Assembly (NCBI GenBank): GCA_044351795.1
Contig: JBILFA010000005.1
Span: 351-64,350 of the forward strand
Direction of reading: 5' to 3'
Length of the DNA: 64,000 nucleotides
From: Bdellovibrionota bacterium
GTDB taxonomy: Bacteria > Bdellovibrionota_C > UBA2361 > OMII01
Positions 3,503 to 49,509 of this stretch are shown one piece after another. Positions within the stretch are counted from its first letter, which is position 1, and the number at the start of each line of letters is the position of its first letter. Made by a program: the position numbers and the translations under genes. The notes under the pieces are model-generated. The model was given only the letters and a program-made list of their open reading frames with translations, searched no databases and had not been told where the DNA came from.

Positions 3503-4777
3503 TTAGTCGCGAGACAAGACCGGAAAGGTAACCGGAAAAGGTATTCCCTGTAAGGTGCGTCGTAGGCAGTCTAATGCCACAAACGCTGCATACGTGCGCA
3601 CATTCCCTCGCTCACTCGGATAGAGACACCGAAGGCTCGAGACCCCCTGCGGCGAGGCGAATCCCACGAAGAAGGTACCAACCGGTTTGTCGTCGCTTCC
3701 GCCAGCGGGACCCGCGACTCCACTGACAGACACCCCAAACGTAGCACCGTAGAGAGTGCGCGCCGAGGTCGCCATCGCCTCCACGGTTTGAGCGCTGACA
3801 GCGCCGTGAGTATCGAGAATCTCTCGCGGCACATTCAACATCTGTTCCTTGATGTCGTTGTGGTACGCCACCACTCCACCGCGATAGACACTTGATGAGC
3901 CGGCAGTCCTCGTCAACAACTCGCCAAGCATGCCTCCCGTGCACGACTCTGCGGTAGCGACAGTTGCCCCGTGCTCGATCAGAAGATTCTGCACACGTTC
4001 GACACAGGACTGAGTGGGTTCTTCTGAGAATATGAAGCTCGGCTCGATAATCGATCGCACTTTCTCCGCGTACTCCCTAAGCGCAGGAAAGCTCTCAGAG
4101 GCTTTCAGTACGACATGCACCTCTGGAAAAGCAGCCCGGTATGAAACTACTATCTCCGGCGGCAGCTTCAATCCGGATACGAGTTTTCCAACAAAAGACT
4201 CCGGAAATCCAAAGGTCTTGAAGGTTATCCGCGTGAGCTTAGGCAGTCCTGCGCTGCGCTCTCGTATCAGGGGAGCAACAGAAGCAGCGTACATGCTCTT
4301 GAACTCGCGCGGCACCCCGGAGAGCGAGCACACCGTCACCCCCTCTTTGGTACTCATCATGAATCCAGGAGCCGTACCGAATTCGTTCGGAATCATCTGC
4401 GAGCCAAGCGGCAGGAGCGCTTGTTTGAGATTGGTAGCATCGAGCGTTCGGCCACGTTTGCGGTAAAAGTCCTCGAGGTGCTTGCGAGCGTCTGGATACT
4501 CTGCCAGCCCCACCTGAAAGAACTGTGCAAGCAGATCACGGGTCAGATCGTCGTCTGTAGGCCCGAGGCCCCCGGATGTGATCACGATGTCGCTCACTGC
4601 ACTCAGCTCGCGCAAGCCGCTCACGAGCTCTCCCATATCGTCATCGACGAGCAGCACTCGCTTTAACTTGAGCCCCAGATCCGAGAGCTCTCGAGCGACG
4701 AAATTGGAATTGGTGTCGACTACACGACCATCGAGGAGCTCAGAACCGGTTGCGAGTATCGATACCGAAATGCTCAT
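3503..4777 (-). CDS. cinA: CinA-family protein (competence/damage-inducible; nicotinamide-nucleotide amidohydrolase PncC-type C-terminal domain)
   Basis: 424 aa. The N-terminal MoCF-like domain has ILATGSELLDGRVVDTNS. The C-terminal CinA domain has ATAESCTGGMLG and GVSVSGVAGPAGG. Confidence 0.9.
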   Translation of the reverse strand: MSISVSILATGSELLDGRVVDTNSNFVARELSDLGLKLKRVLLVDDDMGELVSGLRELSAVSDIVITSGGLGPTDDDLTRDLLAQFFQVGLAEYPDARKHLEDFYRKRGRTLDATNLKQALLPLGSQMIPNEFGTAPGFMMSTKEGVTVCSLSGVPREFKSMYAASVAPLIRERSAGLPKLTRITFKTFGFPESFVGKLVSGLKLPPEIVVSYRAAFPEVHVVLKASESFPALREYAEKVRSIIEPSFIFSEEPTQSCVERVQNLLIEHGATVATAESCTGGMLGELLTRTAGSSSVYRGGVVAYHNDIKEQMLNVPREILDTHGAVSAQTVEAMATSARTLYGATFGVSVSGVAGPAGGSDDKPVGTFFVGFASPQGVSSLRCLYPSERGNVRTYAAFVALDCLRRTLQGIPFPVTFPVLSRD

Positions 4778-6156
4778 GCCCGAGGCTTACCAGATCCAAC
4801 CGAAGCAACCGACATCGAGTCGTGAAGCTTCTTGAGGTCAGCAATCATTGCGAGCACCGCTTTGGGCGGCTTGATCGCATCGGGTGACTGCATAATCTTA
4901 GCTTTGAGGGGATCGATGTACTTGCCGTTATCGAAAAGCCCGAAATGGAGGTGCGGGCCGGTGGCCAAACCTGTCTTGCCAAGGGTTCCAATTACCGAAC
5001 CGCGAGTCACTCGCGCACCCTTCTTAATGCTCGCTGCAATTTTATGAAGATGCATGTACTCAGTCGTGTAGCGCGAATCGTGCGCTATCTTGACCATGTT
5101 GCCCATCGACGATGAATACCCCGAAGCAACTACCACTCCATCGCCTACGGTGCGGATAGGAGTCCCGGTCGGAGCGGAGAAATCAACGCCGTTGTGTGGG
5201 CGTGAGATGTGAAGGATCGGATGGAAGCGGGAGGTCGAGAACACCGAACCGATACGGGTGTACTGAACGGGATAGCGTAGGAAGGCCTTAGTTGGCATCT
5301 GGCCATTCTCGTCGAAGTATCGAACCGTTCCGTCTGAGGCTACATCGCGCACGACAGCCATCAACTTATCACCAAGCTTGAGAGACGCGGCACGAATCGC
5401 GCCGGGCTGAAGTTGCTCACCATCTTCGGTAAATGATTCCTCGAACACGACCGAAAAGGTGTCTCCCGGCTGAAGATCGCGTCGGAATTCGACTCGGTTA
5501 CTGAAGAGATCGACGAAGTCATCGACAACGGCATACGGAATGTCGGCTCCATTGGCCGAATCGACCAAGGAGGAGAATATGGTGCCGGTAACCTTCCGCT
5601 CTTTGCTGATAACCCGAGCCTGATCGATGCGTGGAACGTACCCTTGTGCGGGATCCCCTGTGAGGATTAGTGAGGCTCCGCCTGAAAGCTTACGACGAAT
5701 CTGAACTATCTCGCCTGATTGACGCGTAAACTCGAGTGACTCTCCAACTTTGAGGTCGTGTGCAGATACGCGCGCATCTTTGAATGCGTCGACGAGGACC
5801 TGTGCCCCTTCGGGCGCACCGCCGATATCGAGCCAGACAGAGGAGAGGGTGTCACCCTTAGAGATCGTATGTTCGAAGACACCATCGGCGATTAGAGCGT
5901 CTCCGGCTCCGAAGGGGGTAATGGGTGTTCGGACTGAGATATCGGTTCTTGGCGGGGAAGACAGATCTCCCTCCTCCTCGAGCGACAGGGCCCCGAGACT
6001 TTTTAGTGGGCTCTGGTCGCTGTACAGGAGTTCGTTGGACAACAGTCGCAAGCCTGCGAAATCAGTTATCCGACTTCCTAGGTTTGTGCCTTGTATAAAT
6101 AGCACGCTCCCGAACACCACAACCGCAGTTCGAGCAGCCAAAACGTACCTTTTCAT
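4774..6156 (-). CDS. M23-family (LytM-type) metallopeptidase with N-terminal anchor
   Basis: 460 aa with M23 motifs HNGVDFSAPTGTPI and GPHLHFGLFDNGKYIDP and a hydrophobic N-terminus. A 4-nt overlap links it to the downstream cinA-like gene. Confidence 0.85.
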   Translation of the reverse strand: MKRYVLAARTAVVVFGSVLFIQGTNLGSRITDFAGLRLLSNELLYSDQSPLKSLGALSLEEEGDLSSPPRTDISVRTPITPFGAGDALIADGVFEHTISKGDTLSSVWLDIGGAPEGAQVLVDAFKDARVSAHDLKVGESLEFTRQSGEIVQIRRKLSGGASLILTGDPAQGYVPRIDQARVISKERKVTGTIFSSLVDSANGADIPYAVVDDFVDLFSNRVEFRRDLQPGDTFSVVFEESFTEDGEQLQPGAIRAASLKLGDKLMAVVRDVASDGTVRYFDENGQMPTKAFLRYPVQYTRIGSVFSTSRFHPILHISRPHNGVDFSAPTGTPIRTVGDGVVVASGYSSSMGNMVKIAHDSRYTTEYMHLHKIAASIKKGARVTRGSVIGTLGKTGLATGPHLHFGLFDNGKYIDPLKAKIMQSPDAIKPPKAVLAMIADLKKLHDSMSVASVGSGKPRA

Positions 6157-7758: not shown

Positions 7759-9867
7759 ATGTCCGATCCTATAGACGCTCTGTTACATACGATTCAGAAC
7801 AAGGAGCGTAGAAATCGAACTCTATCTCTCTCCGTTCTTGCTACAGCATATTTAGCCGCCCTGATACTGCTCACTGTTCTCGGTTATTGGTACGACTGTT
7901 GGCTCGTGCTCGCCTCGTCACCGATCGTTGCTGCCGTTCTATGGTACATCTCTCGAAAAGGCATCCGCTCGCTCTCCGTCTCGCTCGCTGAGGCCTCTGC
8001 CATAATAGAGTCTGCGTTTTCAACCAAAGATAGGCTCGGCTCTTTCGTTGAACTACAAGAGTCCTCGCTGGAAGTCGATACCGCGCGTCGCGACTTCATC
8101 TCTCTACAACTACGCTCTCTCATTTCGGGCGCGCCGAATCTTGACGGGATCGGCACATACAAGCTCTCCACCTCTGATAGGAACGCCGCGCTTACTAGTC
8201 TTGTGTTTGCCTGCGCGGCTTTCGGACTCTTCTGGTTTCGACCGATACCTCCCATCGAGCAAGCAGCGCGAGCGATCCGCGAGATCGTCGAGCAGAGCCC
8301 GGATCTGCCGATTCCCCTTCAGGAGCAGGCTCTGGAGCTGGCTCTCACCACACAGGGGTCGCCGTCCGACGTCGCACGGATCTCTGAAGCGCTACAGCGC
8401 ACACGGCAAGAGTTGAGCACAGCGCTGCGAGAGAACGATTCCTCCGGGCACGACCTTGCACCATCCGAATCTTTAGAGAGCTCCCAAGGCTCTGCTCCCG
8501 AAAAGCCGCAGCACTCCCAAAAGAACAAAGAAGAAGCCAAGTCTCCGATCAAAAAGGAGAGCCCGACTTCGCCTCAGCAAGAAAATCGAGCACGCGACGA
8601 GCGCGAAAAGCAAAACCAAGAGAAAGCTCAACAAGAGAAACAAAACTCAAACGAGCCGACGCAAAAGGGAGAGAAGGAGAAGCAAGAGAAACAACAGGGC
8701 TCTCAATCTGCTTCACAGGACCCTTCGAAGAGCTCCACGTCCGAGTCTCAAAAAGAGGGGAGCGATCAACAGCAGGGCTCGCAAGACAAGAACGCCCAAC
8801 AGAAGCAAGGAGGCTCTAAATCCGAGCAGGGCAGCTCCGGTCAACAGCAGACATCAGAACAACAACAACAATCGCAGAAATCCGGGAGCGGCCAACAAGA
8901 AGAGTCACAGGATCAGCAGTCGGGAGGCCAACAAGGCGAGGGGCAAGGGCAGGGAGGCGGATCTGCTCAAGGTCAAAACGATTCGCAGCAGCAAGGTTCT
9001 AAAGGTGCCCCTTCATCTTCCGGCAAGGGGCAGGGAGAGGGTGAACAGAAGACGGGAGAGTCCGATGGTTCACAACAGCAAGGACAAGCCGGGTCCTCTC
9101 CCTCTCAATCAGGGGACAAAGGTTCAGACCAAGCCCTCAACCAACTAGACCAAGCGCTTCAGCAGATGGAGCAAGCCGTAGAGCAACTCCAACAACAAGA
9201 GCAAGGCTCTCAAGGTGACGGAGGCTCAGGCAACAAGGAATCCCCCGGTGACTCTAAGGAGCAGCAAGGGCAGAGCGGAGGCAAACCATCGCCCAACGAA
9301 AATCCAAACCAGAACAACAAGGATTCACAACAGGGATCCAAGGGCCAGGGGAGTGGAGAAGAGCCAAACGACCGTTCGCAGAAGGAGTCCTCTAAGCAGG
9401 GTGACGCCCCAAAAAACGAACCAAACGATCAATCGTCATCTCAGAACAAGGGCGGTAAAAAAGGCGACGACAAGGGGGACAAGGGCTCACAAGGTGGCGA
9501 GGACTCACGTAGTAAAGATAAGCCTCAGGAACAGAAAGAGCAGGGACCTCAAGGCACAGAGGATGGTAGTGGCGAGAGATCTTCTCAGCCGGATCGCAAT
9601 GCCAGAACGAAAGATATCGGAGAGATGGGAGAAGGCTCCGGCGGTGAAGGCCTCGGCCCTAACACTGCGTTCAAAGAATCGGAGATAACGTCACAGGACG
9701 AGAAGTTCGACACACGCTACACCGGCAACGAATCCTCGCTCGAAAAGAACAAGGCTCCGGCCGAACCGAAAACCTCGATAGAAGACGTAACTCTCGCGAA
9801 ACCTAAAGGCTCAAAGGAAAAGGACGAACAGCCGATACCGCTCGAGTATAGGGATATCCTCCAGTAG
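7759..9867 (+). CDS. Membrane-anchored protein with ~450-aa Q/S/G/K/E/D low-complexity region (DUF4175-like organisation, tentative)
   Basis: 702 aa. Hydrophobic helices lie near residues 30-65 and 145-165, followed by extreme compositional bias. It ends with IPLEYRDILQ. Confidence 0.7.
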   Translation: MSDPIDALLHTIQNKERRNRTLSLSVLATAYLAALILLTVLGYWYDCWLVLASSPIVAAVLWYISRKGIRSLSVSLAEASAIIESAFSTKDRLGSFVELQESSLEVDTARRDFISLQLRSLISGAPNLDGIGTYKLSTSDRNAALTSLVFACAAFGLFWFRPIPPIEQAARAIREIVEQSPDLPIPLQEQALELALTTQGSPSDVARISEALQRTRQELSTALRENDSSGHDLAPSESLESSQGSAPEKPQHSQKNKEEAKSPIKKESPTSPQQENRARDEREKQNQEKAQQEKQNSNEPTQKGEKEKQEKQQGSQSASQDPSKSSTSESQKEGSDQQQGSQDKNAQQKQGGSKSEQGSSGQQQTSEQQQQSQKSGSGQQEESQDQQSGGQQGEGQGQGGGSAQGQNDSQQQGSKGAPSSSGKGQGEGEQKTGESDGSQQQGQAGSSPSQSGDKGSDQALNQLDQALQQMEQAVEQLQQQEQGSQGDGGSGNKESPGDSKEQQGQSGGKPSPNENPNQNNKDSQQGSKGQGSGEEPNDRSQKESSKQGDAPKNEPNDQSSSQNKGGKKGDDKGDKGSQGGEDSRSKDKPQEQKEQGPQGTEDGSGERSSQPDRNARTKDIGEMGEGSGGEGLGPNTAFKESEITSQDEKFDTRYTGNESSLEKNKAPAEPKTSIEDVTLAKPKGSKEKDEQPIPLEYRDILQ

Positions 9868-23520: not shown

Positions 23521-24303
23521 TTATGTTGTTTCTACCTCTTCAATATATAAATGAGCACTATAATTTCCATCATTAATCTCACAGGAGCTAAGGGAACTAC
23601 CTCGATATCCAATCCCAATACTATGCACACCAGCTGCCAAGCCAGAAATTACTCCCGTCACGGTTGCAGGATGAGAAGTTGTTGCATTAGCCTCAAAGGT
23701 TCCAAAAGTAGCAGTTCCCCCACCGGCTGAACTAAAGCTTGGCAAAACTACTCCATCCAGGCTTCTTGAATTTACCAAAAGTGAAATATCACAAAAGCCT
23801 GAATTTGTGCTGTCATTTACAAGAGTAACATGCGAACTAAGGGTCAATTTAAGTTTGCTGGTACTTGAGATTTTAGTATAATTGCCGACACTTCGAAGAA
23901 GGCGATGACCAAAATCAAAGATTGTTCCTGTGGAGCTTTCACCAAAAATTAAGGCTGTTAAATTAAGCGAACTCGTCCCTCGAGCGCCTTGCGGTCCTGC
24001 AGCTCCCTGTAGTCCTGCAGCTCCCTGTAGTCCTGCAGCTCCCTGTAGTCCTGCAGCTCCCGCAGTCCCCGTGGCCCCCGTGGCCCCCGTGGCCCCCGTG
24101 GCCCCCGCCGGGCCTGCAAACGTTGCACTATTGGCAATTAGGGAAAAGCCCTTAGGACATTTTTCTCCAATTACCTGCTTTGATGATAGCGAAAGTTTAC
24201 CATTCTTGTTCAGGATCTTAGTACAAATAAGATCAGCACTAGCTGTATCAATAAAACAGGGCAGTATGCCCAAACAAAATAAGATTTTTGCAAAATATTT
24301 CAT
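23521..24303 (-). CDS. Secreted collagen-like triple-helix repeat protein with globular C-terminal domain (BclA-like organisation, tentative)
   Basis: 260 aa with a signal peptide (MKYFAKILFCLGILPCFIDTASA) and 15 uninterrupted G-X-Y triplets (GPAGATGATGATGATGTAGAAGLQGAAGLQ...GPQGARG). A ~150-aa Ser/Thr/Gly-rich domain follows. Confidence 0.8.
   Translation of the reverse strand: MKYFAKILFCLGILPCFIDTASADLICTKILNKNGKLSLSSKQVIGEKCPKGFSLIANSATFAGPAGATGATGATGATGTAGAAGLQGAAGLQGAAGLQGAAGPQGARGTSSLNLTALIFGESSTGTIFDFGHRLLRSVGNYTKISSTSKLKLTLSSHVTLVNDSTNSGFCDISLLVNSRSLDGVVLPSFSSAGGGTATFGTFEANATTSHPATVTGVISGLAAGVHSIGIGYRGSSLSSCEINDGNYSAHLYIEEVETT
23995..24108. repeat. Tandem DNA repeats inside the collagen-like gene (18-bp unit x ~3.5, then 9-bp unit x ~4)
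   Basis: tcctgcagctccctgtag is repeated head-to-tail from 23995. Then ccccgtggc is repeated from about 24067. Confidence 0.9.
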
Positions 24304-24722: not shown

Positions 24723-26152
24723 ATTAAGCAACCTTCTTTCTGTAAATTGCAAAAGTATCGTCATTAGCCATAGTTGATTTCTGTCGTTGTCCCATGTGGA
24801 CGTAAGGCATCTTGAGCTGCAGCCAGTCCTCGTGAATCTCGATGAGGAGCGCTGAGACGAGCCGTAGGCAGGAAGCGGAGTTGGGGAAGATGGTTGCCAC
24901 CCGAGTTCGCCGCTTGATCTCCCGATTCACAAGCTCCAGCCCGTTAACCGTTCGTAGCTTTCGATGAAAGTCACGCGGCAGTGCATAGATTGCAAAGCAC
25001 TCCTCAATGTTCTCCTCGAGGAATCGGCACCACTCGGGAGCGGTCTTGTGGTAGCTCTCGATAGTGGCACGGAGTCTTTGGCGGGCTTCTTCCTTGGTAA
25101 CGCAGCTGAAGATGTCCCTGAGCGCCTGTCCGAGCTCCTCTCGCAGGTGTCGCTTGGGGATGTAACTCTGTGCGTTCTGTGCGAAATGAAATTGGCAGCG
25201 CTGCCAGGGAACGTTGGGAAAGATAGCTTTGCGCGCAGCCTTCATCCCGGCGTGATCGTCACTGACGACAAGCTCTACCCCGTGCAGACCGCGCTGAGTG
25301 AGTGATTGCAAGAACTCTCGCCAATGAACCTCGGCTTCCGAAAAGGAGGTTGAGACACCCAGTACCTCTCGCTGTCCTTTGAGGTTAATCCCTATGGCGA
25401 TGAGCACTGCATGATCGATGACCTCGTCGTTATGACGAACGCTCTCGTATCGTGCGTCGAGCAAGATGTACGGAAAGCACCCGAGCTGACGGGTTCGGAA
25501 CTTCTCGAGCTCGTCATCCAAGACCTTCGAGACCCTGGATACCTGGGTAGAAGATATGTCGAGCCCGCAAAGAACCTCGGTTATCTCGGTGACCCTCCTT
25601 GTAGAGACCCCATTTACGTACATTTCGGCTATCGCAAGCTTTAGCGCTCGTTCCGACCGGATTCCCTTCTCAAGGCTCTGAGGATAAAACGAAAGCCCGC
25701 GAACCTGCGGAATCTCCACCGTAATAGCCCCCATTCGGGTCTGTATGGTCTTAGGTTTGAACCCGTTGGCGTATCCAGTGCGATCAGGCGTGCGCTCATA
25801 CAGGTCCGCCCCAAGCGCCTCCGCCCGTTCCACCTTCATCGCTTCATTGAGAAGCTTTTGGAACACTTCCCGCATCGAATCAGTACCGTTCGATGTTACT
25901 AGTTTCAAAAGCTTCAGGCATCAGCGTATCGTTTCCTTTAGTCGAGGTCATCGTAAGCTCCTTCATCAGAGTTGATTTGTTGCAAATCAACGATGACCTC
26001 GACTTACTTTTCGTTCCGGAAATCCTCAGTCAGCGCCAAATTTACGCTCCCCGAGCTCCGCCGCGCTTCGCTTCGCGGGGGCTTTTGATTGCCCCCCGCT
26101 CAGCGCGGCTCCTTACCAATTCCGGAATTTACAGAAAGGATGGTGCACTATC
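24722..26152 (-). mobile_element. IS256-family insertion sequence (~1.43 kb)
   Basis: Imperfect terminal inverted repeats are centred on ctttctgtaaatt (24736-24748) and aatttacagaaag (26126-26138). They enclose a Mutator-type transposase gene. I saw no matching target-site duplication. Confidence 0.75.
24724..25908 (-). CDS. IS256-family (Mutator-type) transposase
   Basis: 394 aa. YILLDARYESVR, AIGINLKGQREVLG, LVVSDDHAGMK and WQRCQFHF are typical of IS256-family DDE transposases. Confidence 0.92.
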   Translation of the reverse strand: MKLVTSNGTDSMREVFQKLLNEAMKVERAEALGADLYERTPDRTGYANGFKPKTIQTRMGAITVEIPQVRGLSFYPQSLEKGIRSERALKLAIAEMYVNGVSTRRVTEITEVLCGLDISSTQVSRVSKVLDDELEKFRTRQLGCFPYILLDARYESVRHNDEVIDHAVLIAIGINLKGQREVLGVSTSFSEAEVHWREFLQSLTQRGLHGVELVVSDDHAGMKAARKAIFPNVPWQRCQFHFAQNAQSYIPKRHLREELGQALRDIFSCVTKEEARQRLRATIESYHKTAPEWCRFLEENIEECFAIYALPRDFHRKLRTVNGLELVNREIKRRTRVATIFPNSASCLRLVSALLIEIHEDWLQLKMPYVHMGQRQKSTMANDDTFAIYRKKVA

Positions 26153-26214
26153 AAAGGCGCTCCTATCGGAAACCTCACCTCTCAGATATTCACCAACATT
26201 TATCTAAATGATTT
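26152..26214 (+). repeat. 63-bp exact duplicate of an internal segment of the DGR reverse transcriptase gene
   Basis: 26152-26214 is identical to 28852-28914, which encodes KGAPIGNLTSQIFTNIYLND. It lies immediately next to the IS256 right end. Confidence 0.9.
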
Positions 26215-26453: not shown

Positions 26454-27131
26454 ATGATCAGCAATAATACTTCTCCTGTGGCGGGAAACTTTGATACCTC
26501 TTCTGGCTCTACCAATCTTGGCACCTCGACTTACGGAGTGGGGGTTACTGGCGTAGAGGACTGGACGAGCGTTTCTTTCCCAGTACCGCAAGCTACCGCT
26601 GCTCTCCCCGAGGGGACCATCAGCGAGCAGGTAGTAAGCAACCAAGGGTCGGGTCAAGCGATTAGCACAACCCACGGCTTTAAGCAGGGCAGAGCCCCCG
26701 ACGACACAGCTGCTATCGAGGTAAAGATTACAAGACCTAACGGGGAAGAAGTAACATGCCTACTCTCTGAAGGAGCTAAGGGTAAGGTGTACAGTCAGCT
26801 CGCGACCTATGGAAAAAAAGATCTCAAAGGAGCAACCCTCCTCACACACGATGACTTTAAGGCCGTGGTAGACAGTCTCTATAGCGCAATTAAGGGCTAC
26901 ACAGCGGTTAAGGACGCTCTCCAAACAGAAGATCAAGCTCTTCAACAAGCATATATAATAGTGACAGAAGGTGTGCGCAGGGCCGGAGGTTTCTCGTGGG
27001 CCAAATTCGATTTGGATAGCGGGGGTGCCGTTGTTGGTCGGCGCGTTAATGACCACGACCTCTACTGGCGCGACGGCAACACTCGCTTCTGTTGCGCTGC
27101 GTTTGTCTCCCCGCCTGCGGAATCAAAATAA
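26454..27131 (+). CDS. DGR variable (target) protein, small, VR at extreme C-terminus
   Basis: 225-aa ORF. The last 35 codons are the VR, and the reading frame puts every TR/VR difference in the first two positions of AAC/AAT template codons. Confidence 0.8.
   Translation: MISNNTSPVAGNFDTSSGSTNLGTSTYGVGVTGVEDWTSVSFPVPQATAALPEGTISEQVVSNQGSGQAISTTHGFKQGRAPDDTAAIEVKITRPNGEEVTCLLSEGAKGKVYSQLATYGKKDLKGATLLTHDDFKAVVDSLYSAIKGYTAVKDALQTEDQALQQAYIIVTEGVRRAGGFSWAKFDLDSGGAVVGRRVNDHDLYWRDGNTRFCCAAFVSPPAESK
27018..27122 (+). repeat. DGR variable repeat (VR)
   Basis: 105 bp aligning without gaps to 27593-27697. There are 13 mismatches, all where the other copy has A. Confidence 0.92.
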
Positions 27132-27227
27132 TTTGATCGTTGATCATTGGTTTCTTGATCCCCTCCGCAAGGAGGGGTTGGGGCCATTGATCATTGGTAC
27201 TTTGATCGAAAAATTTTCTACTTTAGC
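27126..27227 (+). repeat. Post-VR module: GC hairpin (27160-27177) flanked by five TTGATC motifs; copy 1
   Basis: The hairpin is cccctcc-gcaa-ggagggg. TTGATC occurs 5 times in about 80 bp. The module is roughly 90% identical by eye to 31475-31575. Confidence 0.85.
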
Positions 27228-27368
27228 CGCTTCCACTGGTCTGCTACCCTTTGAGTTACCTTGGGTAATGACAAGGCGGCTAAGGCTTCCGTGCACCTAA
27301 GGGCTGTTCCCACAGTAACGTCAGTAGGAGAAATCCGCTGTAACTGCCAGAGTCGTTGCGTCCCGATG

Positions 27369-27392
27369 AGAGGCGGCGTAGCCGCCTCTTTT
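27369..27392 (+). terminator. Rho-independent terminator candidate downstream of DGR target gene
   Basis: agaggcggc-gta-gccgcctct forms a 9-bp GC-rich stem followed by TTT. Confidence 0.6.
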
Positions 27393-27592
27393 AGATTCAA
27401 CGAGCGTGCAGAACTGTGATGGGAGCAGCAATTCTTGTCCAAGTCTCGTGAGGGGATCTTGTTGGTTGGTATCGGATGATACCAAGGTCGAAAAGCGTAG
27501 CTAACGGCACCGCAACCCCTCCGAATTAAATTCAACCGTGAGAACCGTGTAAGCGCTCAAATGGTGGTGGGTCCGTAAGGGCTTGGGCAAAG

Positions 27593-27697
27593 AGCGGGGG
27601 TGCCGTTGTTGGTCGGCGCGTTAATGACAACGACAACAACTGGAACGACAACAACAATCGCAACAATTGCGCTGCGTTTGTCTCCCCGCCTGCGGAA
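27593..27697 (+). repeat. DGR template repeat (TR)
   Basis: This is the invariant, Asn-codon-rich copy (..aat gac aac gac aac aac tgg aac gac aac aac aat cgc aac aat tgc..). It is not part of a credible ORF. Confidence 0.92.
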
Positions 27698-27773
27698 CTG
27701 CTGTCTCCCCCTTTTTTACCTCTGCCGAACGCTCTTTATCCACCCTCCAAGCATCCGCCTTCGCCCTTCGGGG

Positions 27774-28100
27774 CTACTGCGGACAGGTCCGTCCTATCTC
27801 ATCGAGCCGTTCTTGGAGCGAGACGACCTTCTTCAATGGAAGGACCTTTATATCGACTGCAAGTCGGATAAACATCCGCAGCATATCAACCTCTGCGGCA
27901 AGACGAGTCAAATTCTGCGCTCTCTGCTCACACGGGAGGTATCCCGCATGAACAAATCCCTCTAACATCTGAAGGGCGGTCGCCTCAACACGGCGCCAGA
28001 GGCTGTACCGCTCCATCTTGGGTATGCCTTTTTGTAGGTCGTGTAAGGCCCGGTAGAGCTCATACGTTTTGGCGATGATGGGAATGTCTAATTGCTGCAT
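27774..28100 (-). CDS. avd: DGR accessory variability determinant (Avd-like four-helix-bundle protein)
   Basis: 108 aa from the ATG at 28100. MQQLDIPIIAKTYELYRALHDLQKGIPKMERYSLWRRVEATAL...LDEIGR fits the Avd / 23S-IVS four-helix-bundle pattern (PKxERYxL). The listed longer ORF (to 28208) has an unlikely Arg/Ser-rich extension. Confidence 0.75.
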   Translation of the reverse strand: MQQLDIPIIAKTYELYRALHDLQKGIPKMERYSLWRRVEATALQMLEGFVHAGYLPCEQRAQNLTRLAAEVDMLRMFIRLAVDIKVLPLKKVVSLQERLDEIGRTCPQ

Positions 28101-28133
28101 AGTCCTCCTTCTGTGACGGTTTCGACTAGAAAT

Positions 28134-28303
28134 GGTCTCCAAAGTAGCTCCGTCGCGAGGGCAACGAGATGAGGAGCGAAACGAGGAAAGCGAGCGAAAA
28201 AACCGCAAGTGTATCCCCTGAGATACAGTGAGGATTTTTTCGTGAAGCTTGACGAAGTTGCAGCCCCATCTCGTTGCCCGCAGTAGGAGATACTTTGGAG
28301 ACC
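28134..28303. other. 170-bp bipartite inverted repeat (two perfect 13-bp helices) in the avd-RT intergenic region
   Basis: 28134-28146 pairs with 28291-28303. 28159-28171 pairs with 28267-28279. Together they enclose a ~95-nt purine-rich loop. Confidence 0.8.
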
Positions 28304-28324
28304 AGTTCGAATATATTCGACGAA

Positions 28325-29353
28325 ATGATCTCTCCCGAGCGCCTTTTTGAGGCGTGGTACGAGTTTAGGAAAGGGAAGGGGAACCGCTGCGACGTTCAAG
28401 AGTTTGGTCGGCACGCAGAAAAGCACATCTTTCGACTGCATCGTGACCTTGCTTCAGGAACGTATCGGCACTCTCCGTACGAGTCGTTCTTTGTGCACGA
28501 TCCAAAGAGGCGACACATCAGAAAAGCCTGTGTGCGCGATCGTCTCGTACACCATACGCTCCACATGACCCTACGCCACATCTATGAGCCACGGCTTTAT
28601 AGCGGTGTCTATTCCAATCGTATCGGCAAGGGTACTCACCGGGCGGTAAATGCGTTGCAGCGTGCAGTTTGGAAGGTGAGCAAAAACCTCACACACCCCT
28701 GCTGGGCGCTAAAATGCGATATCAAGCGCTTTTATGACTCAGTAGACCACGAGATCCTAAAAGAGACCCTGGCTAGGGTGATTCATGATGACCGAGCGCT
28801 TCTTCTCTTAGAGCACGTTATCGATAGCTTTCACGTAGAAGGTTCCGTTGGCAAAGGCGCTCCTATCGGAAACCTCACCTCTCAGATATTCACCAACATT
28901 TATCTAAATGATTTTGACCAGCACGTTAAACACGTGCTTCGAGTAAAGCACTATCTCCGGTTTGCTGACGATTGCCTCTTCATTGCCCCTCATCGACAGG
29001 AGTTAGAGGAGCTGCTACCGAAGATTGAAGAGTTTTTAGCCCTACGGCTGAAGCTTGCGCTTCACCCTGACAAGGTAAGCATACGGCCCCTAAATCACGG
29101 TATCGACTTCTTAGGTATCGTGGTGCATCCATTTCGCCGCACGCTCAGAACAACAACCAAGCGCAGGATGCTTCGAAAGTTGACCGAAAGGCACGGGGAG
29201 GCGTTTAGAGGAGAGATTGATTCAGACTCACTTCATCAGTCGCTTCAGTCGTATCTTGGGATTTTGTCACATGTTGATGGGCATGGGCTCTCCACACTTC
29301 TTAAAAACGGCTTCTTTCTGTTCTCTCCATACCGAGGTGGTATTGTCTCGTGA
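28325..29353 (+). CDS. DGR-type reverse transcriptase
   Basis: 342 aa from the ATG at 28325 (the listed ORF starts at TTG 28274). It has the IGNLTSQIFTNIYLNDFD motif characteristic of DGR RTs, an FADD catalytic box and N-terminal LFEAWYEFRKGK. Confidence 0.92.
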   Translation: MISPERLFEAWYEFRKGKGNRCDVQEFGRHAEKHIFRLHRDLASGTYRHSPYESFFVHDPKRRHIRKACVRDRLVHHTLHMTLRHIYEPRLYSGVYSNRIGKGTHRAVNALQRAVWKVSKNLTHPCWALKCDIKRFYDSVDHEILKETLARVIHDDRALLLLEHVIDSFHVEGSVGKGAPIGNLTSQIFTNIYLNDFDQHVKHVLRVKHYLRFADDCLFIAPHRQELEELLPKIEEFLALRLKLALHPDKVSIRPLNHGIDFLGIVVHPFRRTLRTTTKRRMLRKLTERHGEAFRGEIDSDSLHQSLQSYLGILSHVDGHGLSTLLKNGFFLFSPYRGGIVS

Positions 29354-29422
29354 AAACAATGGATTAGAGGAGATATGATTTGGCTTGCGGTGGTGTAGGT
29401 TTTAACCTACAATGAAAGATAC

Positions 29423-29770
29423 ATGGAAGTTCTCCGAAAAGCTTTAAAGATCTATCAGCGCGAAAACGGAGATCTCCCTTTCGTGAGATGGATGAGGGGG
29501 CTGCGAGATGTCCGAGGAAAGCAAGCGATCGAGGCACGGCTTGCTCGTGTTCGTTTGGGAAACCTTGGAGACCATCGCCCGGTCGGGGATGGTGTCACGG
29601 AGCTGCGGTTCTTTATTGGTCCAGGCTACCGTGTCTACATCGGCCTCGAAGGCGATACCGTTGTGATCCTCCTTTGTGGTGGTGATAAAGGCTCTCAGGA
29701 TGGCGACATCGAAACGGCGAAAGCATTTTGGAAAGATTACCAGAGGAGCAAAGCGTATGAAAACGGTTGA
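29423..29770 (+). CDS. Type II toxin, HigB/RelE-superfamily addiction-module killer protein
   Basis: 115 aa. RLGNLGDHRPVGDGVTELRFFIGPGYRVYIGLEGDTVVILLCGGDKGSQDGDIETAK matches the addiction-module killer family pattern. Confidence 0.85.
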   Translation: MEVLRKALKIYQRENGDLPFVRWMRGLRDVRGKQAIEARLARVRLGNLGDHRPVGDGVTELRFFIGPGYRVYIGLEGDTVVILLCGGDKGSQDGDIETAKAFWKDYQRSKAYENG

Positions 29771-30062
29771 TTACGATGAGTATCTAATCGCAGAACTTAA
29801 AGATCTTGAATATGCAGCCGGTTACTTAACGGCCTGCCTCGAAGAAGGTGCAGATGTGTTTCTGGAAGGAATTAGAAACGTCGCCCTAGCTCAAGGCGGG
29901 ATGAAGGCTCTCTCCGATGCCACTCGACTCAATCGTGAAAACCTCTATGACATGCTCTCAAAGGAGGGCAATCCACGTCTCTCAAGCCTCACTACGATTC
30001 TCTCTCAACTAGGTATGGAGGTATCGTTCAAGCCAAAGATGCAGGGAACGGATGCGGCTTGA
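29757..30062 (+). CDS. Type II antitoxin, HigA-family addiction-module antidote (HTH)
   Basis: 101 aa from the ATG at 29757, overlapping the toxin stop by 14 nt. YDEYLIAELKDLEYAAGYLTACLEEG...NRENLYDMLSKEGNPRLSSLTTILSQLGMEVSFKPK matches the antidote family. Confidence 0.85.
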   Translation: MKTVDYDEYLIAELKDLEYAAGYLTACLEEGADVFLEGIRNVALAQGGMKALSDATRLNRENLYDMLSKEGNPRLSSLTTILSQLGMEVSFKPKMQGTDAA

Positions 30063-30171
30063 ACAGGATAGTGGCGGTAGCTGTCGCCTGCTGTAGCGGT
30101 TTTCCTGAGCGCCTGTTGAGGTCTTGGATGGCTTCATTCAGTCTGATCGTATCTTAGAAGTAAGGCCTACC

Positions 30172-30630
30172 ATGAGTAACTTTGACGATTTCAAGGATAT
30201 GCCCGAAGATCGATTCAGCCGCTCCGCCATCCTGCTTCAAGTGATTGATGGGGACACGCTCGATGTTGAGCTCGATCTTGGATGGTCGATGAGGCTCAAG
30301 GAGCGGGTTCGTCTCGAGCGAGTCGATACCCCCGAAATAAAGCGAAAGGAAGAGTGCGATGCTGCTATCTGGGTAAAGGAAGAAGTAGAAAAATTACTCA
30401 AGCCAGGAGCACCTCTGGTCATCACCTCCATGGCTTACGACCGAACAGGTCAAGTGCGTGGAAAGTTTGGAAGAACGATGGCCGTCGTGTATCGGGCAGA
30501 AGATGGTCTTTGCATCAACAGGTATCTTATTGAACAAAAGATCGCCTGGATTACAAATGAACGTGGGAAACTCCTTCAAGACCGCGACCTGTCTCTACTT
30601 ATAGGGATACCACTAGCTCGTAGACCTTAG
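30172..30630 (+). CDS. Thermonuclease (SNase-like) family protein
   Basis: VIDGDTLDVELD...RVRLERVDTPE is the staphylococcal-nuclease-type motif. I prefer the ATG at 30172 over the listed TTG at 30124. Confidence 0.7.
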   Translation: MSNFDDFKDMPEDRFSRSAILLQVIDGDTLDVELDLGWSMRLKERVRLERVDTPEIKRKEECDAAIWVKEEVEKLLKPGAPLVITSMAYDRTGQVRGKFGRTMAVVYRAEDGLCINRYLIEQKIAWITNERGKLLQDRDLSLLIGIPLARRP

Positions 30631-30634
30631 GGGT

Positions 30635-31177
30635 TTACCAGCCTGTATACAGGGAAGGATCGTGAGGATGTGGGCGAAGAGGGAGCGTCTGCTGACAATA
30701 TTTCAGTACGTTTTTACTGAAAGCGATCGGCCTTGAATTCGCGGCCTTCCCTAGTTCCCTCGAGAGTTTTTCAAAAACAACCTCCTTGCAGTACTGGATG
30801 ATGGAAATGTCCGTATTCCCGGGGGGATTTGAGGCATCGAGCCCTTCTGGTGTATCCATCTTGATGCCGTGCCGTTTGATTGCTTTCTCAAGATCGTTTG
30901 ACAGCTTAGACATCTCGCCTTGAGTGATGCAGGGGTATTCCTGAATCGCTTTAATCCCCAGATGCGATTGAACCCCATTCTTGTAAGCCTTATCGATGGC
31001 ACGATCGATGGTTTTTACCCCGCTACAGCACTTCTGCTGCCCAACGAGGTTATCCGCAGAGATGTAGTCGCAGATCCGTCGCTCGTCCCAGGGGCTAGTC
31101 TGTGGAACGTAGTCCTGGCTGTGATCTGTGTACGGGACAGGCTGGGAAGTTTGGGCAGTGATGGCACTTGGCGTCAT
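30635..31177 (-). CDS. Hypothetical protein
   Basis: 180-aa ORF convergent with the nuclease gene, with no recognisable motif. Confidence 0.5.
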   Translation of the reverse strand: MTPSAITAQTSQPVPYTDHSQDYVPQTSPWDERRICDYISADNLVGQQKCCSGVKTIDRAIDKAYKNGVQSHLGIKAIQEYPCITQGEMSKLSNDLEKAIKRHGIKMDTPEGLDASNPPGNTDISIIQYCKEVVFEKLSRELGKAANSRPIAFSKNVLKYCQQTLPLRPHPHDPSLYTGW

Positions 31178-31440
31178 GGAATTATCTCCTCTTGTCTGAG
31201 TTAAGCTGATGGAGCGTCAAAGACACGCCCGGAACTGTCCCTGATAATCGGATACTAGAGCGAATAGTTTCGTGGTAATGGCCAGCTGTTATTCGCGTAC
31301 TAGCTGCGTAGTACAATGGCGGCGCTAGTTGAAACAGAATTGCTAATTCTGTTTCACATAACGCACTTTCCAAATCGTATCGGCGTATACGCGGGATCGA
31401 AAACCGCTCTAACAAATCGTATTCATTGATCCAGCAGTAA

Positions 31441-31575
31441 TGTTGCTGCGTCTGGCTCTCCCTCCCCGGAATTAAAATAATTTGATCCTTGGGTCTTGGT
31501 TTCTTGATCCCCTCTGAAGGAGGGGTTGGGTCCATTGATCATTGGTCCTTTGATCGAAAAATTTTCTACTTTAGC
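31441..31575 (+). repeat. Second copy of the VR-tail plus post-VR hairpin/TTGATC module, without an intact upstream ORF
   Basis: 31475-31575 is about 90% identical to 27126-27227. 31441-31474 is a diverged match to the last ~35 nt of the VR. The hairpin is kept with a C-G to U.G change. Confidence 0.85.
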
Positions 31576-31650
31576 TGTGAAGCTCGTTTAGCTCTCCTAC
31601 AGAGCTACCACATCCTAGCAGCGATATTCTTTTCCTCTGCTCCAACCCAG

Positions 31651-32022
31651 CTAGTTGTTTACATGCCGAAACTCGACCATATAGCTGCCTGGCTCTGGTG
31701 TGTAGTTGCGGAACTTACGACATCGCATCTTCCGAAGACATGTGGAGTTTGCCACGAGTATTGGTGGCGAGGTCGCCTCTGTTCGGCCGCTATACACCTG
31801 CACCTTAACTGAAGGGTCGTAGGCAGCTGGTATCTCGTAGTCATGTGGAAGTGGGATGGTGTACTTGTAGTGAAGTTTACAGTTGGGTTTTCTCCCCGTA
31901 GACCTCCCACAGAAGCCTTCATTGTGAACGTAGGAGATGTGGATGTAGCTACCGTCGTTAATAATATCTACTTTCGGCTTACGTTGCCGTACGGCTCTAC
32001 CAAGCCACCCATCGCGATTCAC
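31651..32022 (-). CDS. Hypothetical protein (possibly translationally coupled to purN)
   Basis: 123-aa ORF whose ATG overlaps the purN stop by 4 nt. It has no motif, and competing ORFs exist on the other strand. Confidence 0.35.
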   Translation of the reverse strand: MNRDGWLGRAVRQRKPKVDIINDGSYIHISYVHNEGFCGRSTGRKPNCKLHYKYTIPLPHDYEIPAAYDPSVKVQVYSGRTEATSPPILVANSTCLRKMRCRKFRNYTPEPGSYMVEFRHVNN

Positions 32023-49198: not shown

Positions 49199-49309
49199 GG
49201 CGGAGAGGTAAAACCACGCAGACGCGTGATTTTGTAATGTGGGGGAACCCTCGGCCACAGCGCACACTTTTTACTAATTGACTTCACACTAGTGATCCAG
49301 GTACGAAGC

Positions 49310-49475
49310 AGATGATTGCGAGCGCCAGGGAAGAACGGTGTAATTCCGTCGCGGTCCCGCCGCTGTATCTGGGAGAGCCCCCTCACACAAGCCCACTGTT
49401 CCGGTTTTTATGTGGAATGGGAAGGGGAGGGAGCGAGTAGCCCAGGAGCCAGAAGACCTTCTCGCAATGATGAGC
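49310..49475 (+). promoter_or_regulatory. Cobalamin (B12) riboswitch
   Basis: The P1 helix pairs attgcgag (49315-49322) with ctcgcaat (49461-49468). The conserved core is AGGGAA..CGGTG.AATTCCG..GCGGTCCCGCCGCTGTA...GCCCACTG...GGGAAGG, with a B12-box-like AGCCCAGGAGCC. It lies upstream of a TonB-dependent receptor gene. Confidence 0.8.
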
Positions 49476-49509
49476 CCGAGTATTCGGCTGTCATCCGGAA
49501 CGTACCCTC

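Follow-up and report, generated by a model that had tools for sequence, protein, structure and literature searches.

A periodic TTGR array and GC hairpin behind the target gene of a Bdellovibrionota diversity-generating retroelement as a probable mark of the variable-repeat recipient

A 64,000-nucleotide stretch of the genome of a Bdellovibrionota bacterium (assembly GCA_044351795.1, contig JBILFA010000005.1, positions 351 to 64,350 of the forward strand; below, "the window," numbered from its first letter) carries a complete diversity-generating retroelement (DGR), as established by A-specific mismatches between its variable repeat (VR) and template repeat (TR) and by matches to the bAvd and RVT_1 protein families. 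Directly behind the stop codon of the target gene stands a module of about 100 nucleotides (nt) in which a GC hairpin is set between two arrays of the tetramer TTGR (that is, TTGA or TTGG). We propose that this module is probably a cis-acting 3' flank whose presence designates a gene as a VR recipient for this DGR lineage and that a second copy of it, further along the window, is a relic. The hairpin and the multitarget layout are of known kinds, and the duplicated module as such is ordinary; the point of interest is the periodic array. In mutagenic retrohoming, the step that is still unsolved is how the cDNA locates the VR and gains entry to it: this is described as "still mysterious" in a 2026 study (PMC12875486), which, in its passages on the target side, names only GC14, the initiation of mutagenic homing (IMH) sequence, and a stem-loop.

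Target gene 1 (26454 to 27131, + strand, from the listing of open reading frames [ORFs]) encodes 225 amino acids (aa) with the VR at the C terminus. The VR (27018 to 27122, +) matches the TR (27593 to 27697, +) over 105 nt with 13 mismatches, every one of which falls on a TR adenine. The accessory variability determinant gene, avd (27774 to 28100, -), matches PF22296 (bAvd) in Pfam with an E value of 5e-14, and the reverse transcriptase (RT; 28325 to 29353, +) matches RVT_1 with an E value of 5e-20. The closest relatives of this RT, at 80 to 96% identity, come from freshwater metagenome-assembled genomes (MAGs) mostly labeled Bdellovibrionota; more distant relatives, at 41 to 53%, are mostly from Patescibacteria, with some "Gammaproteobacteria" MAGs and one Nanoarchaeia MAG, and the RT relatives are DGR loci that carry A-biased repeats. 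The last VR/TR mismatch is found at offset 74 of 105; from there on, the two repeats share 31 identical, GC-rich nt, so that the IMH-like invariant 3' end of the VR (27092 to 27122, +) equals the 3' end of the TR (27667 to 27697) and IMH equals IMH*. Because these last 31 nt are the same in both repeats, the first base that separates the recipient VR from the donor TR is 27123, which is where the module starts.

Module copy 1 (27123 to 27227, +), the conserved 3' flank of the target as delimited by alignments of 8 to 16 copies, reads as follows: the stop codon, four TTGR units 7 to 8 nt apart, a 7-bp GC hairpin with a 3- to 4-nt loop that begins with G, four further TTGR units, and an A5T4 tract. 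Read directly from the letters, the left array (27133 to 27159, +) has units at 27133, 27140, 27147, and 27155 (spacing of 7, 7, and 8), and the right array (27178 to 27217, +) has units at 27178, 27187, 27194, and 27202 (spacing of 9, 7, and 8), followed by the A5T4 tract. The hairpin between them (27160 to 27177, +) consists of CCCCTCC (27160 to 27166), the loop GCAA (27167 to 27170), and GGAGGGG (27171 to 27177), and folds as single-stranded DNA at -8.3 kcal/mol; it begins 29 nt past the stop TAA (27129 to 27131) and 38 nt past the end of VR/TR homology at 27122. The stem is present 3' of the VR and absent 3' of the TR. Five TTGATC hexamers lie on the + strand within 75 nt (27133, 27140, 27155, 27187, and 27202), where the 27 on the + strand of the whole window would lead one to expect about 0.03 (Poisson estimate, P ~1e-10), and TTGATCATTGGT flanks the stem on both sides, at 27140 to 27151 and 27187 to 27198. 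A preliminary description of this DNA had picked out the hairpin after the target stop, five TTGATC motifs within about 80 bp of it, the motif shared by both sides of the stem, and the placement of the hairpin where DGR target-site hairpins lie; each of these observations is borne out by the sequence. An outer helix pairing TGATCA.TTGG with CCAT.TGATCA, which ViennaRNA predicts for copy 1, was rejected: it is 77% paired across copies, shows no compensatory change, and is lost in copy 2.

The module recurs in 16 distinct copies, in related genomes and metagenomes, behind divergent target genes. Some of these were ascertained through the RT (both copies of locus L003 and those of L005, L006, L029, and L055), and others came from a scan with a 35-base pattern. 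Every assessable copy directly follows the stop of a target-type ORF, with the exception of two orphans. In L003, L005, L029, and L055 the module stands 3' of the VR and stop of the DGR-proximal target, and the second module of L003 is reversed and stands some 2 kb past the RT, where it follows a second target ORF that is shorter. The pattern matched only 11 loci among metagenome contigs, 10 of which have the 3' end of a target-type ORF directly upstream while the eleventh contig begins inside the module; scans of viral contigs returned no match for the pattern and none for the RT. The target ORFs that bear the module fall into several divergent groups, with pairwise identity mostly below 35% or undetectable, and at least five sequence flavors are found among their VR tails. 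Across paralogous targets the module is 84 to 92% identical where both flanks, coding DNA included, are unalignable. Its stem is 100% paired and near invariant in 12 copies, the sole stem change among those counted being one of two private substitutions in copy 2 of the window, and four further distinct aligned copies also have the consensus stem arms. The loop varies (GCAA, GCTA, GTTC, GAA, GCA, or inserts of 30 to 63 nt), with a C-GAA-G triloop in 6 of the 16 copies. The right array is invariant in L003 (both copies), L005, L006, L029, and L055. Based on these comparisons, the module belongs to the DGR targets of this lineage as a conserved appendage and is not a generic genome repeat. As a separate observation on the loop, the insertions in L055 (~9000 to 9062) and L057 are 30 to 63 nt of CGCCAAGGCTACGTC(C/T)GACAAGCC repeats, with the CCCCTC/GGAGGGG arms kept.

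Which part of the array is conserved? The left and stem-adjacent GATC (three of the five sites) are lost in several of the 16 copies, where they have become GGTC, AGAT, GAAT, GATT, or GGGT, while TTGR is kept at eight positions (27133, 27140, 27147, 27155, 27178, 27187, 27194, and 27202). In the wider RT clade, arrays of CTTGG or CTTGA occupy the equivalent place, mostly without GATC. The comparison thus points to TTGR, repeated 7 to 8 nt apart on either side of the hairpin, as the conserved unit, and not to GATC.

The same kind of periodicity is found behind DGR targets well outside this lineage. In distant RT relatives, whose TR/VR pairs were located by their A-biased mismatches, CTTGG is the most enriched 5-mer in 33 distinct VR 3' flanks, with 33 occurrences observed against 3.2 expected; it occurs 7 times after TRs and 4 times before VRs. 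Adjacent TTGR pairs at a distance of 7 to 9 nt number 33 in the VR 3' flanks, compared with a mean of 1.0 and a maximum of 6 in shuffles, and with 0.064 per flank in 747 3' flanks of other ORFs. Phage DGRs of other clades have different motifs with the same period, usually just ahead of a GC hairpin. Faecalibacterium phage FP_Lagaffe and its relatives carry AATCTGG four times, conserved over a range of 66 to 99% RT identity and accompanied by hairpin stems that covary; the motif is ATCTG in BalMu-1, AACTG in VHML, ATTCT in a Pseudomonas phage, and CTCTTTA in gut phage contigs. A measure that presupposes no motif gives the same picture: 47 distinct VR 3' flanks have self-match values of 0.361, 0.382, and 0.337 at lags 7, 8, and 15, respectively, compared with about 0.25 at the remaining lags, and the profile is flat for TR 3' flanks, VR 5' flanks, and 1015 3' flanks of other ORFs. 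Individually, 32% of VR flanks and 0% of TR flanks exceed the 95th percentile of the control; the Mann-Whitney p value of the comparison is 1.9e-14. The periodicity holds in the Patescibacteria-type clade and is weaker, and at lag 8, in 14 phage flanks. The TTGATC cluster of the window would then be the local form of a 7- to 8-base periodic repeat that lies behind many DGR targets. Two ideas about what such arrays are were set aside. Pairing of the array with the DGR RNA is unlikely, given that sequence up to 250 nt from the TRs at 24 loci shows no enrichment of the top array 5-mer or of its complement. That the CTG/TTG motifs are primase sites was dropped, since the Firmicutes phage motifs do not fit the reported CTA/TTA specificity.

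The second copy of the module in the window bears on what the module is attached to. In a blastn comparison of the window with itself, 27096 to 27227 matches 31445 to 31575 in the same orientation over 132 nt at 87.1% identity, and no third copy was found; the recurrence noticed in the preliminary description therefore stands, at a slightly lower identity than the roughly 90% estimated there. Identity is uneven, at 77% in the first 86 nt and 97% in the last 59 nt. The orphan copy (31472 to 31575, +, placed by alignment and fold) retains TTGR at all four left units (31482, 31489, 31496, and 31504) and has, as had been said, four TTGATC (31482, 31504, 31535, and 31550). Its stem, CCCCTCT-GAA-GGAGGGG (31509 to 31525), has undergone a C-to-T change that gives a T.G apposition, noted earlier as the equivalent U.G pair, and has a loop of 3 nt; folded as DNA, it forms a stem of 6 bp. 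Upstream of it the ORF listing of the window contains no intact ORF, again in line with the earlier reading, and only about 38 nt of VR tail are left. This stump (31438 to 31480, +) comprises the end of a VR/IMH and 13 codons (VAASGSPSPELK, 31442 to 31480) plus the stop, and was assigned through the TR ends of L029 and L057 and by tblastn. Its tail (31438 to 31471) shares 94 to 97% identity with the TR 3' ends of L029 and L057 and is thus of an IMH flavor other than that of the resident TR, whose end it matches at 21 of 28 positions; the VAASGSPSPELK codons match the C terminus of a 258-aa target in L064.

A related locus indicates what has been lost. Metagenome contig L066 matches window positions 31441 to 31974 at 89.6% (contig positions 768 to 1313), and a 123-aa ORF in the window (31651 to 32022, -), which serves as a synteny anchor, shares 94% aa identity with L066 positions 993 to 1331. 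On this evidence, L066 is the ortholog of the copy-2 locus. There, an intact 225-aa target-type ORF (127 to 804), with a C terminus that looks A-variable, ends just before the module; where L066 holds this ORF, the window retains 13 codons. The search of related genomes for a second intact target that had been recommended thus yields one at this very locus, and it supports the suggestion, made with the first description, that copy 2 may be the remnant of a second target gene. Copy 2 would accordingly be the stump of a lost second target, a relic of an ordinary kind and not a functional target. The junction upstream of it is reproducible across assemblies, since contig L114 of an independent assembly (Logan SRR27426722) is 100% identical over 30311 to 31493. 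In L003, L005, and L006 a tyrosine integrase follows a segment that matches 31197 to 31290, and there is none in the window; a deletion or replacement has probably removed the body of target 2 together with the adjacent integrase. The idea that the DGR simply inserted itself into a gene of the L066 type was rejected, because the 5' part of such a gene is nowhere in the window. A role for copy 2 as a decoy homing site is unlikely, because it has no VR body with which a cDNA could pair; for want of that body it would not be rewritable and would be decaying. Damaged target ends are also seen elsewhere: L006 has a module with no VR upstream and with a 30-nt insertion, and a target in L060 has lost both its IMH end and its module.

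In total, these observations are consistent with a model in which the GC hairpin would fold on the sense strand when that strand is transiently single stranded, the sense strand being the one that would pair with the cDNA. The AT-rich periodic TTGR arrays might aid melting, or they might offer multivalent docking to the particle formed by RT, Avd, RNA, and cDNA or to a host factor; either would position the cDNA at the IMH. According to the sections of PMC12875486 that deal with cDNA entry, the cDNA seems to engage the sense strand during its single-stranded phase at the fork, with the stem-loop prolonging the open state. In E. coli reconstitutions, the sense strand is favored when it serves as the lagging-strand template. 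Wu et al., in their treatment of the IMH (PMC5758913), argue that recognition must extend downstream if IMH equals IMH*, as it does at this DGR.

Could the array be a more general signal? We put forward, tentatively and with more doubt than for the module itself, that a 7- to 8-nt direct-repeat array between VR and hairpin may be a widespread and unrecognized cis-determinant of DGR targets, forming a clade-specific recognition code. It is possible, at the same guarded level, that this code is read by the RT-Avd-RNA-cDNA particle or by a host single-strand-binding factor, which would use it to tell recipient VR from donor TR. The candidate motifs, each of them provisional, would be TTGATC/TTGGT here, CTTGG in the Patescibacteria-type clade, AATCTGG in Faecalibacterium phages, and CTCTTTA in gut phage contigs. 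In function, the code would correspond to what is specific to the VR in the IMH of BPP-1. The target-site passages of PMC3240598, PMC4372165, and PMC12875486 and the IMH/inverted-repeat section of PMC5758913 make no mention of a periodic array. The portions of PMC8144416, PMC10907252, and preprint 10.1101/2024.11.15.621889 that we drew on hold no relevant target-site passage, PMC6642488 treats the IMH as background only in the part concerned, and the paper of Paul et al. 2017 on DGRs of the candidate phyla radiation is outside the scope of this comparison. A periodic, clade-specific array placed where the recipient first differs from the donor would be a concrete and mutable candidate for the recognition signal, and it could account for the identity of IMH and IMH* in some DGRs. 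It might further serve as a portable "target tag" in DGR-based directed evolution and as a sequence signature by which remote or fossil targets, copy 2 among them, could be recognized.

Comparison with described systems helps to separate what is familiar from what is not. Guo et al. 2011 (PMC3240598) report, in the part of their study devoted to these structures, that GC-rich hairpins of this form are required for efficient homing of BPP-1, where the target site consists of GC14/IMH and a GC hairpin or cruciform. The hairpin of the window shares with that of BPP-1 a GC-rich 7-bp stem and a small G-initial loop just 3' of the VR, its presence after the VR and absence after the TR, and its position and orientation. 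It differs in that the stem sequence is invariant in this lineage, whereas structure alone matters in BPP-1; in that IMH and IMH* are identical here; and in that it is set in TTGR arrays with a 7- to 8-nt period, of which the BPP-1 work, as far as its target-site account goes, describes none. Hairpins with GRA trinucleotide loops are described for Nanoarchaeota DGRs in the relevant part of Paul et al. 2015 (PMC4372165), and the C-GAA-G triloop of some module copies is shared with them, as is the GAA loop of copy 2 of the window; the RT clade of the window includes Patescibacteria and Nanoarchaeia loci. The Nanoarchaeota hairpins, in that account, lie inside the target ORF, in contrast to the module hairpin, which lies past the stop codon and between repeat arrays. 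With the multitarget DGRs covered in the corresponding part of Wu et al. 2018 (PMC5758913), the lineage has in common a core flanked by two targets, each with a 3' recognition flank, of which L003 is an example; in the window, the second target is cut down to 13 codons and a module, with an IMH-like tail of the L029/L057/L064 TR flavor. Of the phenomena already described, the array itself comes closest to the TAACTGA heptamers, direct repeats of Beggiatoaceae, Cyanobacteria, and Bacteroidetes (MacGregor 2015, PMC4679880). Both are intergenic direct repeats with a 7-nt period, the heptamers occurring in 2 to 6 copies per set, and the VR flank of phage VHML, which reads TAACTGTTAACTGA, can be likened to them. 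The heptamers, however, stand mostly just upstream of start codons, genome-wide and unlinked to DGRs, whereas the DGR arrays come after VRs and stop codons and are confined to DGR targets.

Several observations weigh against the role that we propose. The hairpin begins slightly farther from the end of VR/TR homology, at 38 nt, than the 4 to 34 bp reported for phage DGRs, and its loop, GCAA, is GNRA and not the GRNA of the published target-site definition, which calls for a stem of 7 to 10 bp and a 4-nt loop; other module loops are GCTA or GAA, the last of these, in relatives, being a GRA triloop. The stem shows no covariation among the 12 copies of this lineage, and because it never covaries, we infer the hairpin structure from stem invariance combined with loop variation. 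The scan pattern corresponds to the right half of the module, so the invariance of that half in L056 to L066 was imposed by the pattern. Among orthologous DGR-proximal loci, conservation of the module does not clearly exceed that of the spacer, avd, or RT, and the sample of flanks in the periodicity analysis is dominated by one RT clade. A partner for the TTGR array was not found, and near the TR there is no enrichment of the motif or of its complement. Finally, the whole case is computational, and a role of the module in homing is a proposal.

How do other explanations fare against the same evidence? Clusters of GATC are bound by SeqA or read by Dam-dependent switches, and the preliminary description raised methylation-dependent or protein-binding control through GATC. 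If the cluster followed Dam, SeqA, or MutH-like logic, it would regulate the target gene or homing, and five GATC in 75 nt, two right-hand GATC that are invariant in all RT-ascertained copies, and a window in which GATC is not avoided (394 observed versus 247 expected from base composition) can be read in that sense. The likeness to such clusters, however, is in local GATC density; what the module conserves is TTGR at a spacing of 7 to 8 and 15 nt, with GATC replaced in relatives while TTGR stays, mostly missing from the CTTGG/CTTGA arrays of the wider clade, and absent from the AATCTGG, ATCTG, or CTCTTTA of other clades. We therefore regard control through GATC as very unlikely. A role at the level of RNA is also unlikely, although less sharply so, and is compatible with our proposal rather than exclusive of it: the module would then act mainly as a 3' untranslated region element (a terminator, stabilizer, or regulator site) of target mRNAs and not as a DNA homing signal. 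In favor of this, its place is immediately past the stop codon, many distant relatives carry a T-run behind a hairpin in this region, and the TAACTGA heptamers have been proposed elsewhere as post-transcriptional regulator sites (PMC4679880). In the window, no T-run follows the hairpin (TTGGGGCC stands there instead), a terminator scan makes no call, and a better terminator-like hairpin lies at ~27370 to 27394; moreover, the 3' flanks of other genes at the same loci lack the periodicity. C-GAA-G and GNNA loops, for their part, are classic stable DNA mini-hairpins.

Mobility offers two further explanations. A short, hairpin-bearing element present twice might be a generic dispersed repeat, similar to a repetitive extragenic palindromic (REP) sequence or a miniature inverted-repeat transposable element (MITE), that lies near the DGR by chance; this we find scarcely credible, given two copies only in the window, a 35-base pattern that matches 11 metagenome loci and no viral ones, and assessable copies that each abut the 3' end of a target-type ORF or a recognizable stump. 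The common repeat unrelated to DGRs that was named beforehand as the refuting case is thus not what the data describe. Alternatively, the two direct copies could be att-like sites that bound a mobile 4.35-kb cassette (TR, avd, RT, toxin-antitoxin pair, and nuclease) inserted by site-specific or homologous recombination, as was suggested in the idea of a recombination boundary for a 4.3-kb segment. Direct repeats do bracket a segment with a toxin-antitoxin pair and a nuclease, a tyrosine integrase adjoins the DGR in L003, L005, and L006, and the population contains mosaic loci, such as L057, whose TR does not match the neighboring VR. The breakpoints, however, are not at the edges of the module: homology to L066 breaks at 31441, inside the old coding/VR tail, and relatives have indels at 29316/31196 and 31290. 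The two modules of L003 are mutually inverted, each on its own target gene, the window has no integrase, and the 5' part of the L066-type gene is missing from it. We judge the cassette to be highly improbable. A separate, attC-like reading of GTTGGGT was rejected, as there is no inverse core site and the internal repeats are direct.

The remainder of the locus can be summarized briefly. The target gene 1 protein has no match in Pfam; its homologs in L055 and L057 are 50 to 55% identical, and the second target of L003 is 58% identical across the C-terminal 81 aa. Downstream of the RT lie a toxin-antitoxin-like pair (29423 to 30062, +; ORFs 29423 to 29770 and 29757 to 30062, the second of which matches PF21716, an addiction-module antidote), an SNase-like nuclease ORF (30172 to 30630, +) with a weak match to PF00565 at an E value of 0.0026, under the curated cutoff, and a 180-aa ORF with no assigned function (30635 to 31177, -) that is in the ORF listing and is also present in L005 and L053. 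The avd gene stands between TR and RT on the strand opposite to both, and any + strand transcript that contains the TR and reaches the RT must therefore cross avd in antisense. The 365-nt spacer from module to TR (27228 to 27592) is 77 to 95% conserved in relatives, and part of it (27282 to 27399) is duplicated in L064; the terminator-like hairpin within it reads GAGGCGGC-GTA-GCCGCCTC-TTTT. Between the divergent starts of avd and RT, at 28127 to 28311, there is an imperfect palindrome of about 185 nt with 23-nt inverted arms (28129 to 28151 and 28286 to 28308). It is present in L002 and absent in L003, L004, L005, L029, L055, L057, and L065, in which avd and RT are about 40 nt apart, and it has the look of a MITE-like insertion immediately ahead of the RT start.

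Mosaic structure is evident in and around these DGRs. The TR of L057 is of the L029/L064 flavor and mismatches the adjacent VR (820 to 990 versus 1620 to 1790). In L060 (4780 to 5060), the VR-bearing target that lost its IMH end and module is ORF 4255 to 4860, and the orthologs in L062 and L065 differ. A 1.9-kb block (29316 to 31196) that holds the toxin-antitoxin pair, the SNase-like ORF, and the 180-aa ORF is found in the window and in L005 and is absent from L003 and L006, where the RT is followed directly by the segment matching 31197 to 31290 and then by the tyrosine integrase; L053 has the SNase-like and 180-aa ORFs of the block. Upstream of target gene 1, by 240 nt, a 63-nt RT fragment (26152 to 26214) is 100% identical to 28852 to 28914 (motif KGAPIGNLTSQIFTNIYLNDF) and directly abuts the right end of an insertion sequence (IS) of the IS256/Mutator family, the transposase ORF of which spans 24724 to 25908. 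The same IS end (26060 to 26152) is joined to RT position 29169 in L054, and in L006 IS-like sequence stands ahead of an RT truncated at 28712; this IS thus appears to have hit DGR RT genes at three different positions.

On the scale of the window, a tRNA scan returned no tRNA genes, and an Rfam scan found nothing at the DGR locus, its sole match at the gathering score being a cobalamin riboswitch at 49303 to 49479 (+; 84 bits). An ORF with collagen-like GAT/GAAGLQ repeats (23521 to 24303, -) adjoins the IS. GC skew changes sign between ~24000 and 28000, being about -0.05 to -0.11 in the left part and +0.04 to +0.07 in the right, with a cumulative minimum near 26 kb, and most large ORFs to either side of the change lie on the + strand. 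This switch could be of the origin type, the breakpoint of a large IS-mediated inversion, or a chimeric join; if the right side is a true replichore, target gene 1 is codirectional with replication.

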